Source: Patescibacteria group bacterium (GTDB lineage: Bacteria; Patescibacteriota; Saccharimonadia; Saccharimonadales; UBA4665). Taken from it: a DNA stretch of 64,000 nucleotides. Under the pieces are notes generated by a model that saw only the letters and a program-made list of their open reading frames with translations, ran no database searches and was not told the origin of the DNA. Each line of letters opens with the position of its first letter. Position 1 is the first letter of the stretch. Made by a program: the position numbers and the translations under genes. The stretch is taken from contig JBBTTE010000004.1 in NCBI GenBank assembly GCA_038064395.1, positions 37,342-101,341 of the forward strand, given 5' to 3'. Shown here piece by piece: positions 2,358 through 63,687 of this stretch.

Positions 2358-3188
2358 TTACGTTGATTTGAATACTACGATGAAGTCTATAGTCTGCTCT
2401 AAGGTGTAGCCCTTAGCTTCGGCCATTTTTTGCAGTTCAGCATGTTGGTCAGGGAACGCCTCAATTAATAAATACAACGGCTTAATGTTCAATTTGCTAA
2501 TCTGGTCAAAAAGCTTACGGTAGAGATCCAGACCGTCTTGGCCAGCAAACAAGGCTATCTTGGGCTCATGCTGCGCCGCCTGATTAATCTTATGCTTATC
2601 TGGTACGTAGGGTAGGTTACACAGTAAGATGTCGTAATCCTTGGGTGATGACTTCAGCAGGTCGCTCTTGATGACGCTTATGCCTGGTGTAAGTTTATCT
2701 ACATTGATTTGGGCTATTTGTAGGGCTTTGTCATCTATCTCTATCAGGTCGACAGTGCAATTTGGTACTTCTAAGGCGGTAGTAATTCCGAGCGCTCCAG
2801 AGCCGGTTCCGACATCTGCGATACGTAGCTTATGGTCTGGGTTTTGCCACAACACCCTACTAGCGGCCAACTCCTTGAACAGGTCAATAATTGTCTCGGA
2901 CTCAGGCCTCGGCACAAGTACGCCAGGACCGACTACAAAATCACGACCATAGAACTCACAGTGTCCACGTATGTAGGCAAGGGGCTCGTGAGCCGCCCTA
3001 CGATTGAGCAAATTTGTGAGTTTTGCTTGTTGCTCGGTAGTTAGTTGGGCTTCTGGCTCAGCCAATAGGTGCGCGCGATCAAGGCCAAGCACGTCTTCCA
3101 GCAAAACCAAACAATCAAGTCTTGCCGTGGCAATACTCGCAGTCTGCAATAGCTTCGTGGCATCTTGTAGCCATTCTCTAATATTCAT
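2358..3188 (-). CDS. prmC: peptide chain release factor N5-glutamine methyltransferase PrmC/HemK
   Basis: SAM motif DVGTGSGALG. The catalytic motif position reads NLPY instead of NPPY. The HemK-like N-terminal helical domain is present and prfA is nearby. Confidence 0.85.
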   Translation of the reverse strand: MNIREWLQDATKLLQTASIATARLDCLVLLEDVLGLDRAHLLAEPEAQLTTEQQAKLTNLLNRRAAHEPLAYIRGHCEFYGRDFVVGPGVLVPRPESETIIDLFKELAASRVLWQNPDHKLRIADVGTGSGALGITTALEVPNCTVDLIEIDDKALQIAQINVDKLTPGISVIKSDLLKSSPKDYDILLCNLPYVPDKHKINQAAQHEPKIALFAGQDGLDLYRKLFDQISKLNIKPLYLLIEAFPDQHAELQKMAEAKGYTLEQTIDFIVVFKST

Positions 3189-3195
3189 TGTAGGT

Positions 3196-3201
3196 ATTAT
3201 A
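3196..3201 (-). promoter_or_regulatory. -10 box TATAAT for prmC, 7 nt upstream of its ATG (leaderless layout)
   Basis: The minus strand reads TATAAT-acctaca-ATG, with the ATG at 3188. Confidence 0.5.
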
Positions 3202-3246
3202 TGCCCAACGACGTGATCCGCGGCAGGTTTTGTGATTAGTTAATCC

Positions 3247-3306
3247 GTGACTATATAGAATCACTAGCGAATCCATATAAATTCTATATAGATTCGATAT
3301 GGTCAC
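3247..3306. repeat. palindromic intergenic element with 11-bp phased ATAT cores (family copy A)
   Basis: ATAT cores start at 3253, (3264 skipped), 3275, 3286 and 3297. Terminal inverted repeats are GTGACTATATAGAATC (3247-3262) and GATTCGATATGGTCAC (3291-3306), matching at 14 of 16 positions. Confidence 0.75.
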
Positions 3307-3342: not shown

Positions 3343-3371
3343 TTGACAAAACAGCAATAATTTGCTACAAT
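3343..3371 (+). promoter_or_regulatory. sigma70-type promoter TTGACA-17-TGcTACAAT for the 3407 gene
   Basis: TTGACA lies at 3343-3348, followed by a 17-nt spacer ending in TGc and TACAAT at 3366-3371. An AAGGA Shine-Dalgarno precedes the ATG at 3407. Confidence 0.7.
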
Positions 3372-3406: not shown

Positions 3407-4282
3407 ATGAGCTTCAACCCCAAATCCCACAACATGCTTGGTGACCAGTCTGGCTCAGGCTCGGTCGGTGCTATTAGAGGTGCGGCTCTGGTGCTTCTTG
3501 CTGCTGCAGTTGGTGGAGGCGCCATTCACATTAACGAGCACGACCAAAACGAACAAAAGAAAATGATAGAAGGTGCAGCACAACCTGTACTCGACGCCAA
3601 CAAAGAAGTTATAGACGACATTTATGCGATAGATGATGCCAAGGAGCTGGCAAAAGAAGGCATGTTCAAGCGAGTCGCACTTCATATGGAAACGCCCAAG
3701 CCATATCCTGTTGAAAAACTACGTGACGGCAAGGAAGGCCGTGTACTTCCGAGTAGCTTCGATATTCCTAAGAGCACCAGCGCTTCACTTAGGAAGCAGA
3801 TTTTCCGTGACGGCAAACACATTACTTGGACCGAGGCCAAAGAAGCTGCCAAGTTACGCGATACGACTCCTGCAAGTGAACGATATCGAACAGTAGCTGT
3901 GGATGCCAGCAATTCAAGCACCGACCCCAATAAGAGCATTAAATATGCCGCGAACGACAAGGAATTCCAGCGCTACATTAGATTGACAGATAGTATCACA
4001 CAGGCTGCGGCCGAATCGGTCAAACCACTAACTGCCGAATTAAAAAATGATTTCGATCAAGAACGTCAGAACCTCGATGGATACAAGAGGATAGCCAAGT
4101 TAATAGGCCTTCAATTCAATCCAAACTTTAGAGAGCTCAGAGAAAGCACCTCTGAAATAGATGCAGCAATTAATTCTATGAAGTACACAGCGGAGTTGAA
4201 CCACGTAGAGTTACCAACAGATAAGTCTAAGCAAGAGCAGTCCACCAAGCGACCGCTAACTCCCGAAACTACGCAATCTTAA
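3407..4282 (+). CDS. hypothetical protein, N-terminal TM anchor plus charged extracytoplasmic region (orphan)
   Basis: ORF with a near-consensus promoter and an SD. It has one hydrophobic helix (AALVLLAAAVGGGA). No family motif was recognised. Confidence 0.55.
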   Translation: MSFNPKSHNMLGDQSGSGSVGAIRGAALVLLAAAVGGGAIHINEHDQNEQKKMIEGAAQPVLDANKEVIDDIYAIDDAKELAKEGMFKRVALHMETPKPYPVEKLRDGKEGRVLPSSFDIPKSTSASLRKQIFRDGKHITWTEAKEAAKLRDTTPASERYRTVAVDASNSSTDPNKSIKYAANDKEFQRYIRLTDSITQAAAESVKPLTAELKNDFDQERQNLDGYKRIAKLIGLQFNPNFRELRESTSEIDAAINSMKYTAELNHVELPTDKSKQEQSTKRPLTPETTQS

Positions 4283-7685: not shown

Positions 7686-8048
7686 CTATTGCTTAGGAGT
7701 TGTAATGTCGTTGACGGCCTTGATTTCGGCCTTCTCGATCTTAGCAGCGACACGCTTGGCGTCCTTCTTGGCGGCAGAGGCACGCTTGTCCTTGTTGGCA
7801 GCACCGGCAGCGGCACGAGCCTTAAACTTATCGACGCGACCTTCGATGTCTAGAATTCGTTCTTCACCGGTGAAGAACGGGTGAGAAGCGCTGGTAATGT
7901 GTACCTTCATAAGTGGATATTCGTTGCCGTCTTCCCACTTGGTGGTTTCTTCGGTCTTAGCGGTTGAGCGCGTCAAGAATCGGAAGCCGTTGTTGAGGTC
8001 TTCGAATACCATTAGCTGGTAGCTGTCGGGGTGAATACTCTTCTTCAT
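7686..8048 (-). CDS. rpmE: 50S ribosomal protein L31 (type B, no CxxC) with Lys/Ala-rich C-terminal extension
   Basis: MKKSIHPD...ITSASHPFFTG is the L31 signature. The zinc-binding cysteines are absent. A roughly 40-aa KA-rich tail follows. The start is taken at the ATG at 8048; the ORF track extends to 8069. Confidence 0.9.
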   Translation of the reverse strand: MKKSIHPDSYQLMVFEDLNNGFRFLTRSTAKTEETTKWEDGNEYPLMKVHITSASHPFFTGEERILDIEGRVDKFKARAAAGAANKDKRASAAKKDAKRVAAKIEKAEIKAVNDITTPKQ

Positions 8049-9627: not shown

Positions 9628-10236
9628 ATGACCGATATAACTGTTCCCGAATTTAGGCCACTTCGTCCAGAGGACTGCTTTGAAGTATCTACGGGGCGGA
9701 ATGGCTATGAGGTAGATGGGCATACTTGTAGTATTTTAATGATGGCACCCCAAACTGCACTCGTTATGGCTATTGTTGAGGCTGGGGAAGGCCATCGCAT
9801 TGATATTCCGCCGGCCGTGCAGAACATCAACGCATTGAACCAGAAATTATCGGAAAATGCCTACGGTTTTGGTTCAGATGAGCTGCACAAGGCAGCAGCT
9901 CGTGTTGTAGAGCTTACGAACACAGAAATGGTAGATAGCATATCTGCTAAGTTCGACATGCTAGTCAAACATTTTAATATGCACGAACAGAGTATTATCA
10001 GACTCCTCGGGAAAAACACTGAGCATGGAGATACAATGATCGCTGCCTATGTCGGAACTATCTTGCTAAAGGACGAAGTTGCCAAAGACTATTCCGAAGA
10101 CGCCAAACATCTAGAAGTGTTCACAAGTCTTGTTGATAGTCACGGTCAGGTCGGTGTGCAGCCTGAGGGCTATGGACTGGGACGACTTCTGGTTAGAGAT
10201 GATAAATTAGACACACTCGGTCTTACGCTTAGATAG
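9628..10236 (+). CDS. hypothetical soluble protein (orphan) at the position usually held by pyrH
   Basis: Clean 202-aa ORF with TATACT at 9612-9617, 10 nt upstream of the ATG. No family motif was recognised. Confidence 0.5.
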   Translation: MTDITVPEFRPLRPEDCFEVSTGRNGYEVDGHTCSILMMAPQTALVMAIVEAGEGHRIDIPPAVQNINALNQKLSENAYGFGSDELHKAAARVVELTNTEMVDSISAKFDMLVKHFNMHEQSIIRLLGKNTEHGDTMIAAYVGTILLKDEVAKDYSEDAKHLEVFTSLVDSHGQVGVQPEGYGLGRLLVRDDKLDTLGLTLR

Positions 10237-10318
10237 TGCGACTGAATTGGCTAGAGAGCAACTACATTCCTCGGCATGACTACACACACCGAGTGTGCCT
10301 ATGTGATACACTCAGTGT

Positions 10319-10531
10319 GTGAACCCCTTAACTACACGAATGCACATTACTATGCCTACGGGTTTTCTTGAAGATCTGGACCAGCACGCTAAGGCTTGTT
10401 ATATGTCGCGCAGTGACTACATCCGTATTGCATTGATGGAGAAGATGAACCGACAAAATATGGTAGACTACCCTCAAGCAGGACCAACCAATAACAAGGA
10501 TGATGATGGATTCGCAGCAAGTAGTAACTAA
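10319..10531 (+). CDS. ribbon-helix-helix (CopG/Arc/MetJ-like) DNA-binding protein
   Basis: MHITMPTGFLEDLDQHAKACYMSRSDYIRIALMEKM fits a beta-strand/helix/helix RHH pattern. The probable start is the ATG at 10340; a GTG at 10319 is an alternative. The 3' end overlaps the frr start. Confidence 0.6.
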   Translation: MNPLTTRMHITMPTGFLEDLDQHAKACYMSRSDYIRIALMEKMNRQNMVDYPQAGPTNNKDDDGFAASSN

Positions 10532-21758: not shown

Positions 21759-21823
21759 GTATATCGATTAGATATACTTTTGATATCTTTTGCATATAGA
21801 ATTGATATGGTGGCCAAATTAGT
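21759..21823. repeat. 11-bp phased ATAT-core array (family copy C) with conserved tail ATATGGTnnnCAAATTAGT
   Basis: ATAT cores start at 21761, 21772, 21783, 21794 and 21805, an exact 11-bp spacing. The tail at 21805-21823 matches 32692-32710 at 16 of 19 positions. Confidence 0.75.
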
Positions 21824-21864
21824 AACGTAAATTCCAAACAGAACCCATTAGTAAACCGATAAGC

Positions 21865-21870
21865 TATAAT
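21865..21870 (+). promoter_or_regulatory. -10 TATAAT, 7 nt before the serS ATG at 21878
   Basis: Read directly from the sequence. Confidence 0.5.
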
Positions 21871-21877
21871 TATTATC

Positions 21878-23161
21878 ATGCTAGACATTCAATACATCCG
21901 TGACCACGCTGACGAAGTGGCTGAGAAGTCCAAGCAAAAGGGCTACGATGTCGATATTCAGCAATTGCTGGGCTTCGATAAGGAGCGCCGCGAGCTGATT
22001 GGCCAGGTCGAAGAATTACGCCAACAGCGCAACGAGCTGAACTCTCAGACCAAGGGCAGCAAGCCGAGCGAAGATCAGATAGCCAAAGGCAAGGCTCTAC
22101 GTGATCAAGTAACTGACCTAGAACACAAGCTAGCTTCGATCGAGAAGGAGTACACCATACTACTTAAGACCGTGCCGAACATGCCACTCCAAGAAGTACC
22201 TGTGGGCGCTAGCGAAGACCAAAACGTCGAGGTCAAGAAGCAAGGTGAGCCAACTAAGTTCGATTTCACACCCAAGAGTCACGCCGAAATAGCCGAGGCC
22301 AAGGGCTGGATAGACAAGGAGCGGGCGGCCAAAGTCGCTGGTTCAAGATTTGCATATCTCAAGGGCGACCTAGTTAAGCTGCAGTTCGCAATTATTCAAT
22401 TCGTAATGGACAAGCTGACAGACACTGAATTTCTTGATGCAATCATCAAAGAGAGCAACTTAAAGGTTAGCAATAAGGCATTCACGCCTGTGCTGCCTCC
22501 GTATATGATCCGAACTGAAGTTTACGATGCCATGGATCGCCTCGAGCCGCGTGAAGATCGCTACAAACTGGAGAATGATGATCAGTGGTTGCAGGGCAGT
22601 GCCGAGCATGTTCTTGGCAGCATGCATATGAAAGAGGACATTCCTTATGATGACCTACCTGTACGTTACCTAGGCTACGCTACAAGCTTCCGTCGTGAGG
22701 CTGGTACTTACGGCAAGGACACCGAGGGTATTTTTCGCATGCACCAGTTCGACAAGCTAGAGATGGAGAGCATAACAGATGAGACTACTGGCTTAGATGA
22801 GCACAAATTCCTTGTAGCCATTCAGGAAAAGCTCATGCAAGAGTTGCAAATACCGTACAGATTGTTAGAGAAATGCACCGCTGACATTGGTAAGCCCAAC
22901 GCCAAAGGCATGGACATCGATGCCTGGCTGCCAGGCCAGAACCAGTACCGCGAAACACACACCGCTGACTATATGACTGACTATCAGTCACGACGCATGA
23001 ACCTTACATACAGCAAAGGTTTAACACACACCAACGACGCCACAGCCTTCGCGCTAGGCCGCACTATGATAGCTGTCATAGAGAACTATCAAACAGCCGA
23101 AGGCGACGTCAAAATACCAATGGTACTGCAGCCCTTCATGGGTGGCAGAGCAGAAATTTAG
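21878..23161 (+). CDS. serS: seryl-tRNA synthetase
   Basis: N-terminal coiled coil (MLDIQYIRDH..), class II motifs (FRREAGTYGKDTEGIFRMHQF) and a length of 427 aa. Confidence 0.95.
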   Translation: MLDIQYIRDHADEVAEKSKQKGYDVDIQQLLGFDKERRELIGQVEELRQQRNELNSQTKGSKPSEDQIAKGKALRDQVTDLEHKLASIEKEYTILLKTVPNMPLQEVPVGASEDQNVEVKKQGEPTKFDFTPKSHAEIAEAKGWIDKERAAKVAGSRFAYLKGDLVKLQFAIIQFVMDKLTDTEFLDAIIKESNLKVSNKAFTPVLPPYMIRTEVYDAMDRLEPREDRYKLENDDQWLQGSAEHVLGSMHMKEDIPYDDLPVRYLGYATSFRREAGTYGKDTEGIFRMHQFDKLEMESITDETTGLDEHKFLVAIQEKLMQELQIPYRLLEKCTADIGKPNAKGMDIDAWLPGQNQYRETHTADYMTDYQSRRMNLTYSKGLTHTNDATAFALGRTMIAVIENYQTAEGDVKIPMVLQPFMGGRAEI

Positions 23162-32533: not shown

Positions 32534-32598
32534 GGCAATTCAGCCATTGTTCTCCCTCGGGCACAGAACGGCCGTCGGGAGAAAATGGCCGAATCGCC
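32534..32598 (+). other. 65-nt extended imperfect hairpin directly after the CHAP gene stop
   Basis: The arms are GGCAATTCAGCCATTGTTCTCCC (32534-32556) and GGGAGAAAATGGCCGAATCGCC (32577-32598). They form about 20 pairs with 2 mismatches and 1 bulge around a 20-nt loop. No U-tract follows. Confidence 0.6.
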
Positions 32599-32618
32599 TC
32601 AAGCGCACTTAGGAATTT

Positions 32619-32710
32619 GACCACCATATAGAAAACATATCTATTCTATATGGATTCTATATGCATCTAGTACGAAATCTATATAAGTTCTATATGGTCA
32701 TCAAATTAGT
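32619..32710. repeat. 11-bp phased ATAT-core palindromic array (family copy B, longest)
   Basis: ATAT cores start at 32626, 32637, 32648, 32659, (32670 skipped), 32681 and 32692. The ends are inverted: GACCA(CCA)TATAGAA versus TTCTATATGGTC. The tail CAAATTAGT is shared with copy C. Confidence 0.8.
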
Positions 32711-32792
32711 GAAGGCGCCTAAGTCAGATTACTTGATGGGTGCCCGCAAAGACGACAAAGCCAAAGCCTAAAACCTCAAGCGTAAGCACAAA

Positions 32793-32801
32793 TGGTATAA
32801 T
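32793..32801 (+). promoter_or_regulatory. extended -10 TGgTATAAT, 8 nt before the ATG at 32810
   Basis: Read directly from the sequence. Confidence 0.55.
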
Positions 32802-32809
32802 AGACAGCA

Positions 32810-34021
32810 ATGAACTTGAGACCAAAAGTGAACGGCCGCAAAATCGCGCGTAGCCTAGTCAATATCTTTATCCTGCTGGCTATCTTCATGGTAGGTGTCA
32901 ATGTCGGTAATGGACGTCTGGAATGGCAACGTCATAAGTCGGTTTCTCAGGAGTTGCCGTCCAAGCTCAACTACAGTAGCGTCGACAGCGTTTATCAGGC
33001 ACTGAAGGCCAATTACGACGGCAAGCTAACCCAGAAGCAGCTCGAAGACGGCCTCAAGCACGGTCTAGCCGAAGCTACCAAGGACCCTTACACTAGCTAC
33101 TTTACGGCCAAGGAGGCTAAGGACTTCAACTCGCAGCTTAACAACAGCTTCAGCGGCATTGGTGCACAGCTGGGCAAGGATGCTGACGGCAATCTTGAGG
33201 TTATATCGCCAATTGATGGTTTGCCAGCCGACAAGGCAGGCCTTAAGGCCAAGGATATAATCGTCTACGTTAACGGGACAAGTACCAGTGGTATGTCTGT
33301 AGATGACGCTGTCAGTCGAATTCGCGGACCCAAGGATACCAAGGTTAAGCTACAAGTTGTGCGCAACAGGGCCGAAACTCTAAACTTCACAATCACCAGA
33401 CAAGATATCAACCTCCCAAGTGTGAAGACCAAGATTCTTGATGGCAACATCGGTTATCTACAGATCACCAGCTTTTCCAACGATACCAACGAGCTAGTTC
33501 AGAAAGCAGCTCAAGACTTCAAGCAGAAGAACGTCAAAGGCATAATTCTAGACATGCGTGATGATCCAGGCGGCTTGCTGGATGCAGCCATCAAAGTTTC
33601 TAGCCTATGGTTGCCGCAAGGTACGAAGATTCTAGATGAGAAGCAGGGCAACACCGTAATTGATAGCAGCTCAGCGACAGGCGGAGACATCCTTAACGGT
33701 ATCCCAACCGTAGTTCTGGTTAATTCAGGCAGCGCTAGTGCCAGCGAAATCACCGCCGGCGCCCTCCGCGACAACAAGGCGGCCTACATAATAGGCGAAA
33801 AGAGCTATGGTAAGGGCGTCGTTCAGCAGCTAATTAACTTCGGTGACGGCAGCCAACTTAAGGTAACTGTAGCTAGCTGGTACCGACCCAACGGACAGAA
33901 CATTAATCACCGTGGCATCACGCCTGACAAGGTTATCAAGATCACTCCAGAAGAAGCCAAGACTGGCAACGACACGCAGCTGAAGGCCGCCGAGGCCTAC
34001 CTGACAGCTAAGCAGCAGTAG
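32810..34021 (+). CDS. S41 family C-terminal processing (tail-specific) peptidase with PDZ domain
   Basis: An N-terminal TM helix, a PDZ segment (PADKAGLKAKDII), the catalytic Ser context GSASASEI and a downstream YGKG Lys motif are all present. Confidence 0.9.
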   Translation: MNLRPKVNGRKIARSLVNIFILLAIFMVGVNVGNGRLEWQRHKSVSQELPSKLNYSSVDSVYQALKANYDGKLTQKQLEDGLKHGLAEATKDPYTSYFTAKEAKDFNSQLNNSFSGIGAQLGKDADGNLEVISPIDGLPADKAGLKAKDIIVYVNGTSTSGMSVDDAVSRIRGPKDTKVKLQVVRNRAETLNFTITRQDINLPSVKTKILDGNIGYLQITSFSNDTNELVQKAAQDFKQKNVKGIILDMRDDPGGLLDAAIKVSSLWLPQGTKILDEKQGNTVIDSSSATGGDILNGIPTVVLVNSGSASASEITAGALRDNKAAYIIGEKSYGKGVVQQLINFGDGSQLKVTVASWYRPNGQNINHRGITPDKVIKITPEEAKTGNDTQLKAAEAYLTAKQQ

Positions 34022-63113: not shown

Positions 63114-63128
63114 TTGTTCGTATTTTGT
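63114..63128 (+). repeat. left copy of the exact 15-bp direct repeat TTGTTCGTATTTTGT
   Basis: It is identical to 63673-63687. Confidence 0.85.
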
Positions 63129-63137
63129 TCGGCATTC

Positions 63138-63177
63138 TTATATCTTCGTAATATCAAAAAAACTATATAAACATATC
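63138..63177. repeat. weak phased ATAT array (family copy E)
   Basis: ATAT cores start at 63140, 63151 and 63173 on an 11-bp lattice. CTATATAA at 63163-63170 is slightly off-phase. Confidence 0.4.
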
Positions 63178-63322
63178 ACAATGCCAAAAAGTCAAATTTT
63201 TGCAAAATTGTCGGACGTGCAGGGAAGTTAAATATTTATAACAATATGGCGAAAAAGCAATAGTTTCACGGCAATACTGTGGAAAAGTCAAATAGTGCTA
63301 CAAATCACATTCAAGCACTAGG

Positions 63323-63368
63323 CCTATATAGGGGGCTATATAGTGGCATGATCTATATGAAGGCATAG
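63323..63368. repeat. cluster of CTATATAG palindromes (family copy D, imperfect phasing)
   Basis: CCTATATAG lies at 63323-63331, GCTATATAG at 63335-63343 and TCTATATGA at 63352-63360. The spacings are 12 and 17 bp. Confidence 0.45.
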
Positions 63369-63672
63369 AGCGCCGGCGTAGTGCAGCGTTAAACAGCAAA
63401 CGTGCAAATCGTAGCCGTAACCCCTAAATACTTCCCTACAGCAGGGGTACACGAACTCATCTATTAATCAGATATGCGAGTCGCAAAATATACATTGTGC
63501 GACACGATGTCTATAGCTCGAACTTGCAACCTAACCCGCCCGCACTCACTGATTTATTTATCGCCTGCGCGTTTTTGGTTTGATAATTTTGTCGCGTGCC
63601 TGCTCCACTGCCATAGTCCTGCTACATTGCCGTACTTCACAAATGCCTATCCAACAATCACCCACACTATGT

Positions 63673-63687
63673 TTGTTCGTATTTTGT
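63673..63687 (+). repeat. right copy of the exact 15-bp direct repeat TTGTTCGTATTTTGT
   Basis: It is identical to 63114-63128. Confidence 0.85.

Follow-up and report, generated by a model that had tools for sequence, protein, structure and literature searches.

The 64,000-nt stretch of DNA analysed here (the window), which belongs to a groundwater Saccharibacteria MAG (Hainich), contains three intergenic arrays of ATAT cores set on an exact 11-bp lattice. The S41 protein and its neighbours place the stretch on contig CAYINA010000002.1 of assembly GCA_964364755.1, and gene context was taken from Pfam tables of this contig and of syntenic relatives. The lattice was confirmed to be real and not a product of chance, and the arrays, termed A, B and C and comprising 5, 5 and 7 units, respectively, all lie upstream of promoters within the approximately 4 kb of intergenic DNA of the window. 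Phased-repeat, palindromic intergenic elements are represented here by a variant not described before, in an uncultivated CPR bacterium. The initial annotation, which took array C as its starting point, had described a non-coding, dispersed intergenic family, and the three arrays agree with that description. It had not noted the insertion signature at array C, the conservation of array A in a relative with an indel of exactly one 11-bp unit, or the narrow lineage range of the family.

The 11-bp lattice and its three occurrences

Period 11 was the sole period at which chains of at least three ATAT cores occurred in the window (chain lengths 3, 4, 5 and 6); periods 8-10 and 12-14 yielded none. 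Among 500 dinucleotide-preserving shuffles of the window, 5 reached a chain of 3 and none a chain of 4 or more; when the intergenic region alone was shuffled, a chain of 4 was reached once in 5000 trials. TRF called period 11 independently at all three loci and a repeat finder likewise returned period 11. In CRISPR arrays, repeats of 24-48 bp alternate with unique spacers of about that length; the period of 11 bp and lack of spacers exclude such an array here, as had been claimed. No further arrays were found in approximately 16 kb of extra flank on the same contig, and there were no other dispersed repeats in the window or in the related genome L102.

Array C (32619..32699, plus strand) sits between a CHAP-domain gene, part of an FtsE-FtsX-CHAP cluster, and a leaderless S41 protease gene. 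Its seven units, in register from 32624, read in order CCATATAGAAA, ACATATCTATT, CTATATGGATT, CTATATGCATC, TAGTACGAAAT (a core-less spacer), CTATATAAGTT and CTATATGGTCA. Reading of the sequence recovered the ATAT starts originally listed (32626, 32637, 32648, 32659, 32681 and 32692), the one skipped lattice point at 32670, where TCTAGTACGAAA stands, and the inverted ends, GACCA(CCA)TATAGAA versus TTCTATATGGTC, which give the array its inverted termini GACCA..TGGTC. Around the array lies an extended imperfect palindrome (32606..32725, no strand assigned) with 48-nt arms that are 71% complementary, CACTTAGG-AATTTGA-CCATATAGAA and TTCTATATGG-TCAAATT-CCTAAGTC, and its fold z is -3.9 on the plus strand and -4.8 on the minus strand. 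A ATTAGTGA box, representing a second motif common to the family, lies 5 nt past the array end (32705..32712, plus strand). The S41 gene has an extended -10 at 32796-32801 and a leaderless ATG at 32810, within and after TAAGCACAAATGGTATAAT (plus strand), so that the TATAAT at 32796 is 96 nt past the array end, in agreement with the distance of about 95 bp given initially. A separate conserved hairpin (32534-32598) lies behind the upstream CHAP gene, and the public annotation places a 36-aa ORF, MHLVRNLYKFYMVIKLVKAPKSDYLMGARKDDKAKA, at 32661-32771, inside array C and its tail.

The recurrence of parts of array C elsewhere in the window was also reproduced, its module order being found again at 3251-3305, in array A, and its tail ATATGGTnnnCAAATTAGT (32692-32710) at 21805-21823. 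Array A (3246..3306, plus strand; GTGAC...GTCAC) has five units from 3251, namely CTATATAGAAT, the spacer CACTAGCGAAT, CCATATAAATT, CTATATAGATT and CGATATGGTCA, and is adjoined by a ATTAGTTA box (3235..3242, plus strand). It lies between divergent promoters, that of prmC on the minus strand (-10 at 3196-3201) and that of orf291-serC-serA (TTGACA at 3343, TACAAT at 3366). Array B (21759..21813, plus strand), located between a PDDEXK-nuclease gene and the leaderless serS, has five units on an exact lattice with diverged unit flanks (GTATATCGATT, AGATATACTTT, TGATATCTTTT, GCATATAGAAT and TGATATGGTGG) and is not palindromic; two ATTAGTAA boxes lie downstream of it (21818-21825 and 21847-21854, plus strand), and the serS -10 (21865-21870) follows 52 nt past the array, with the leaderless ATG at 21878. 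A leaderless layout of TATAAT, 7-8 nt and ATG is common to prmC (3186-3201), serS (21865-21880) and the S41 gene (32796-32812), none of which has a -35 box or a Shine-Dalgarno sequence, and the TGn or GC-TATAAT context is kept in relatives.

When the 17 units of the three arrays were placed in register, the consensus was CTATATAGATT, with 1.3-1.5 bits per position in the ATAT core versus 0.3-0.5 bits in the flanks. Unit orientation is the same in A, B and C, the plus strand being the strand of the downstream gene in each. The initial wording of palindromic units was too strong: conservation is limited to the ATAT core, and the units behave as direct repeats in a single orientation. Core-less spacer units stay in phase, both in array A (CACTAGCGAAT at 3262) and in array C (TAGTACGAAAT at 32668), and the perfect lattice of array B despite its diverged unit flanks indicates that core and spacing are constrained, rather than that the array arose by recent tandem duplication. 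The proposal that the 11-bp period puts every site on one face of the helix holds approximately, but a unit of 11.0 bp against 10.5 bp per turn causes the face to drift by about 120 degrees across seven units. Conservation of position relative to the promoter, by comparison, was not borne out: the array end is 61 nt from the -10 in A, 52 nt in B and 96 nt in C (66 nt in copy C' of the related genome L106), and this variation means that neither position nor helical phase is conserved.

At the level of the whole array, A, C, C' and the L102 counterpart of array B (B') are significant palindromes relative to shuffles, with fold z from -3 to -8.6 (-3 to -7.6 for A, C and C'); array B is no palindrome (z = -0.8). 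Terminal inverted repeats of the form GTGAC(C)ATAT...ATATGGTCAC are present in A, in its counterpart A' on contig L114 and in C, and are weak or absent in B. Of the 8 plus-strand copies of the second family motif, ATTAGTNA, 4 fall in the spacers that carry the three arrays, and these spacers account for 1% of the window. Each array terminates in ATGGTC or ATGGTG, opening ORFs of 7-25 aa, and no coding-type conservation was seen for the 7-25 aa ORFs starting from the terminal ATGGTC.

Presence, absence and conservation in related genomes

Four relatives from two lineages (L001, L104 and L116, which share 98-99.7% mutual identity in S41, and L102) have a short CHAP-S41 spacer, and the window has this spacer with 177 bp added, the 9-bp direct repeat CCTCAAGCG marking both ends of the addition. 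The left copy of the repeat, at the edge of the inserted block, lies at 32597..32605 (p=0.021) and the right copy, followed directly by TAAGCACAAATGGTATAAT, at 32774..32782, both on the plus strand; in a shuffle test the occurrence of a 9-mer common to both flanks had p = 0.02. Removing the block together with one repeat copy restores the ...ATCGCC..AAGC.TAAGCA..AATG.TATAAT of the relatives. The block is composed of a 120-bp palindrome adjoining the left repeat copy and then a 48-nt A/C-rich tail (32726..32773, plus strand), which is absent from L001, L104, L116 and L102. L106, an outgroup in the S41 tree, has a different member of the family at the same site, with a perfect 18-bp inverted repeat, GACCATATATAAACGCTA...TAGCGTTTATATATGGTC. 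At locus C, DNA was either inserted twice, independently, at the same site, or gained once and then precisely lost; both histories are the behaviour of inserted DNA. Among 80 relatives, ATAT/TATA lattices before S41 were confined to one or two, and an analogous 11-bp array there was found only in the distant Saccharibacteria L031 (~2895-2945) and L040 (~2905-2950), in which GTGATATA/GTATATAC units stand at 11-bp spacing in the CHAP-S41 spacer. A palindromic array, GGTGATACAC...GTGTATCAC, occupies the same spacer in the likewise distant L010 (~2905-2960). Palindromic arrays seem to settle repeatedly in the CHAP-S41 spacer.

At locus A, a single pairwise comparison between the window and a 1.5-kb metagenome contig from another sample (L114; PrmC 78% identical) indicates that the array is under purifying selection. 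The array is kept at 59 of 61 positions, and its sole length change is one extra 11-bp unit, ATGGATAGATT. The 218-bp spacer that contains it is 92% identical between the two, the corresponding figures for third codon positions being 62% in prmC and 71% in orf291, and the identity of the array has P ~3e-7 under a neutral identity of 0.71. Its conservation is not significantly higher than that of its own promoter-bearing flanks (90-91%), and the short contig may be chimeric. Neither array A nor orf291 is present in L113 and L115. The membrane-anchored product of orf291 (3407-4282) has no Pfam match and occurs only in the window genome and L114, and the neighbour of prmC is serC directly in L115 and a 92-aa gene in L113. 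It may be that orf291 and array A arrived together.

At locus B, the serS spacers of L104 and L106 span 28-48 nt and contain no array, and the spacer of L102 has homologous flanks (TTTTATTGTCT... and ...GGTGGCCAA) between which the lattice is largely lost. In the place of array B, L102 carries a perfect 20-bp inverted repeat, CACCACACCTATTAGGCATA/TATGCCTAATAGGTGTGGTG (9876-9931; fold z = -8.6), and the perfection of this palindrome implies recent formation or active maintenance. In the same species as L102, an array-like stretch, AATATCGAAAAGATATCGTTTCTATATGGTGGC (L113 12603-12640), with three ATAT cores at 11 bp and a GGTGGC end as in array B, lies upstream of parA in an extended stretch of non-coding DNA.

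Outside these loci, scans of metagenomes, plasmids, phages and relatives were mostly empty, which indicates that the family is narrow in lineage range. A metagenome pattern scan with TCTATATNNNTTCNATATGGTC gave 19 chance-like matches, none of them a Saccharibacteria-type array, and the same pattern had no match in the viral contigs scanned. BLAST of the array C block against plasmids and phages returned nothing meaningful, and 629 kb of related Saccharibacteria showed no enrichment of period-11 self-similarity. Other samples held the identical strain, leaving no strain polymorphism to compare. An ATAT lattice ending in GGT had 37 matches in viral contigs, and CTATAT in these contigs gave, at each of the periods 10, 11 and 12 and among the matches listed, generic tandem repeats of AT-rich viruses, so that no period preference can be read from them.

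Within the window, a possible off-lattice relative (63324..63359, no strand assigned) has CTATATAG at 63324 and 63336 and CTATATG at 63353, with spacings of 12 and 17, and shares a 608-bp non-coding gap with a weak 3-point lattice at 63140-63176. A perfect 15-bp direct repeat, TTGTTCGTATTTTGT, at 63114-63128 and 63673-63687 surrounds 544 bp of non-coding DNA, and the resulting segment (63114-63687), which lies between convergent genes and holds the two copies of CTATATAG, the single CTATATG and the weak ATAT lattice, looks like a small inserted, att-flanked remnant. Rfam gave only noise on 62.9-63.8 kb at an E-value threshold of 1. Two phage contigs, L206 and L217 (IMG/VR 3300036951_000480 and 3300036958_000584), each contain a palindromic array, CTCCTATATAGGCTCTATATAGTCCCTATATAGGCTCCTATATG, built from CCTATATAGG-type units at an 11-bp period, and it resembles the 63.3-kb cluster.

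Known systems and alternative explanations

Several identities were rejected. There were no Rfam matches at the gathering threshold across the whole window, and array C at an E-value threshold of 1 gave sub-threshold miRNA noise. The arrays are unlike parS, the 16-bp palindrome TGTTNCACGTGAAACA being unmatched within 3 mismatches in the window and L110, and no canonical parS was found within approximately 72 kb around parAB. An 18-24-bp palindrome that is faintly parS-like, (CG)TTCTTCACCGGTGAAGAA(CG), is present in rpmE (7860-7877), and also at L113 2008-2029 and L115 2340-2357; it may merely encode the conserved L31 peptide FFTGEE by self-complementary codons. A replication origin was dismissed because the cumulative GC skew has no switch. 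Promoter and terminator scans detected no internal promoter or terminator in the arrays, and tandem promoters or a leaderless mini-ORF were rejected as the unit-derived TAnnnT hexamers are just 4 nt away from the terminal ATG and TATATA lacks the -7 T.

The arrays resemble several described systems, but membership of the parC, PHO-box or MITE classes is not claimed, at least one defining feature of each having been tested and not found. REP/BIME sequences are, like the arrays, dispersed intergenic imperfect palindromes and are able to bind nucleoid proteins, but REP units are ~35 bp long, follow genes, occur in hundreds of copies with a RAYT transposase and lack the 11-bp lattice. The 'bind' locus of pMV158 RepB has three 11-bp direct repeats, and replication iterons, onto which an oligomeric protein is loaded, sit by the rep gene in the origin; the arrays share the helically spaced short repeats, but occupy three chromosomal sites with no rep gene and no GC-skew switch. 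Two protein-loading sites serve as precedents. In parC of plasmid R1, the 11-bp iterons come in sets of five, about one ParR dimer binds to each iteron, and the site doubles as an operator; binding is cooperative and the DNA is bent (PMC2241845). The arrays are alike in having in-phase 11-bp direct repeats by a promoter, 5, 5 and 7 of them where an operator of the parC type has at least 4-5 repeats of about 10-11 bp. However, parC has two sets around the core promoter of its own plasmid parMR operon, whereas the arrays are single sets located 50-110 bp upstream of unrelated chromosomal genes, with inverted ends and another sequence; their neighbours are prmC, orf291-serC-serA, serS, CHAP and S41, with no parR or parM, and the chromosomal ParAB genes are elsewhere. 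Streptomyces PhoP operators contain up to six 11-nt units, of which even poorly conserved ones are protected, and shortening of a unit from 11 to 10 nt drastically lowers binding (PMC2275107). PHO boxes are thus similar in their head-to-tail 11-nt units of variable number with weak units strictly in phase, and binding to them spreads cooperatively from core units and is affected when the unit length is altered by 1 nt (PMC2275107). They differ in that their unit is G/C-rich, compared with the ATAT core of the arrays, and in that they usually overlap the -35 of a conserved phosphate regulon, while the arrays are further upstream, lineage-specific and show signs of insertion. A PHO-box-like fixed position relative to the -35/-10 was not found, given distances of 52, 61 and 96 nt, and 66 nt in L106.

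Of the three explanations initially put forward, an operator array and a MITE-like element lead, and an intrinsically bent module is not supported. MITEs, for example the Correia elements of Neisseria, are short, non-coding and intergenic, have inverted termini, a target-site duplication and a patchy distribution, and now and then take on a role as promoter or protein-binding modules, with the copies in one genome normally numerous and near-identical along their length. As the main rival to an operator array, it is possible, if somewhat unlikely, that the arrays are MITE-like non-autonomous elements, in which case the termini GTGACCATAT...ATATGGTCAC would be TIRs and the phased units subterminal transposase-binding sites, with the placing upstream of promoters reflecting the only permissive place in a compact genome and any host function being secondary. 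Such an origin is consistent with the 177-bp block and 9-bp repeat of array C, whose removal yields the sequence of L001, L104, L116 and L102, with the other family member and its perfect 18-bp inverted repeat at the same site in L106, with the patchy presence and absence at all three loci, with the significant palindromes of A, C and C' and with the lineage restriction of the family. The direct repeats flanking A, B and C also exceed those of shuffles in length, if marginally (combined p ~0.005), measuring 9 bp at C, 8 bp at A (p=0.056) and 7 bp at B (p=0.08), with none in L106; however, these putative duplications are inconsistent in both length and position, and at C the 48-nt tail separates the palindrome from the right repeat copy. 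The three copies cannot be aligned beyond the unit level and have only stretches of 12-21 nt in common, so that what they share is common motifs and the lattice; array B is not palindromic, and we know of no described MITE with an exact internal 11-bp periodicity. Further against a MITE, no transposase was found in approximately 80 kb, no parent insertion sequence was seen, the metagenome, viral, plasmid and phage searches gave no other copies, and array A appears to be under purifying selection.

A protein-independent structure, in which phased flexible TpA steps would make the segment anisotropically bendable and supercoil-sensitive and so favour looping or wrapping of the upstream DNA around RNA polymerase or a nucleoid protein, is improbable. 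The conservation of little beyond the TpA-centred ATAT core and its spacing, and a period near the helical repeat of underwound DNA, would suit it, and an exploratory wedge model predicts curvature for array B, at the 0.3 percentile among segments of 80 bp. By the same model A and C are not predicted to be curved (17th and 24th percentiles), the helical phase relative to the promoter varies, and flexibility leaves the termini GTGACC/GGTCAC and the ATTAGTNA box unexplained. A role as nucleic-acid hairpins, in the form of a cruciform, of a small RNA or of a terminator or insulator for the upstream gene, is very improbable. In its favour, shuffles fold significantly less well than A, C, L106-C' and L102-B', and B and C come after same-strand genes. 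Against it, array A lies between divergent promoters where a terminator is needless, array B gives no fold (z = -0.8), scans for terminators with a T-tract found none, the hairpin at 32534-32598 already lies behind the CHAP gene, there are no Rfam matches, and hairpins leave the exact lattice unexplained. Equally remote, and largely refuted, is an origin as functionless 11-bp minisatellites formed by local tandem duplication, or as an accident of composition: slippage does predict the change in unit number between array A and L114, and CTATAT tandem repeats at periods 10/11/12 are common in AT-rich viral contigs, but the shuffles rule out chance, termini, spacer unit and tail are common to three dispersed loci, unit flanks have diverged while cores have not, and array A is conserved well above synonymous sites.

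A candidate docking platform and its implications

The best explanation, which we hold tentatively and at somewhat less than even confidence, is that the arrays are cooperative protein-binding, probably regulatory, arrays, akin to the 11-bp iterons of parC or the units of PhoP operators, that were delivered by insertion. This docking reading is favoured because the short core, the exact 11-bp spacing, the in-register weak units and the length change by a whole unit are traits of arrays that cooperatively load one subunit or dimer per turn. The common orientation of the units, the selection on array A and the company of the ATTAGTNA box also speak for it. The arrays would serve as cis-acting docking platforms, with a TpA-centred ATAT in each 11-bp unit about one turn apart. 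A small DNA-binding protein would nucleate on the best units, CTATATRG and the inverted terminal pair GACCATAT/ATATGGTC, either as one dimer per unit (as ParR on parC) or as head-to-tail monomers (as in OmpR/PhoB-type proteins), and would then spread cooperatively over the weak, core-less spacer units. The outcome would be a nucleoprotein segment of 55-80 bp upstream of extended -10 promoters, which may modulate prmC, orf291-serC-serA, serS and the S41 protease, with the modules having come to at least some sites through insertion of a DNA block. We infer here the protein binding, the binder's identity and any regulatory effect. Serine genes lie behind two of the three arrays (serC-serA and serS; post-hoc probability 0.014), a link that hints at a regulon.

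No candidate binder was found in approximately 80 kb of the genome, a stretch with receiver-only proteins and no OmpR-type effector domain. The RHH protein at 10319-10531 that had been suggested as a binder did not hold up, as this 63-aa product (10340-10531) is a sub-threshold RHH match with unrelated palindromes of its own upstream. The inverted repeats concerned, ACACACCGAGTGTG and ACACTCAGTGTGT (10284-10320), immediately precede the RHH-like gene and are probably its own operator. Also against docking, the orthologous promoters of close relatives lack arrays, array B is unconserved in L102, and both promoter distance and helical phase vary. Since the period-11 architecture is not general in the 629 kb of relatives, any regulon would have to be very young. 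The docking and MITE explanations are compatible with each other if insertion-derived modules were co-opted.

A broader form of the docking explanation, which we regard as doubtful at present, is that the arrays are portable operators of an undescribed kind in CPR bacteria, whose insertion would rewire housekeeping promoters in one step. Short blocks of DNA would arrive immediately in front of promoters of the extended -10 type, many of them leaderless, with the 11-bp lattice ready-made, and an oligomerising protein would read the lattice mainly through TpA/ATAT minor-groove geometry. The promoters rewired in this way would be those of serine biosynthesis, serS and a cell-envelope protease, with the number of units tuned in 11-bp quanta.

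Almost nothing is known of transcriptional control in CPR bacteria and Saccharibacteria, which combine tiny genomes and few regulators with many leaderless genes. Should the arrays prove to be only a decaying MITE, they still document mobile DNA where little of it was expected for the lineage. A conserved, exactly phased family of cis-elements with signs of both mobility and selection offers a handle for finding a DNA-binding protein, and allows one to test whether regulatory sites spread as mobile modules in these genomes.
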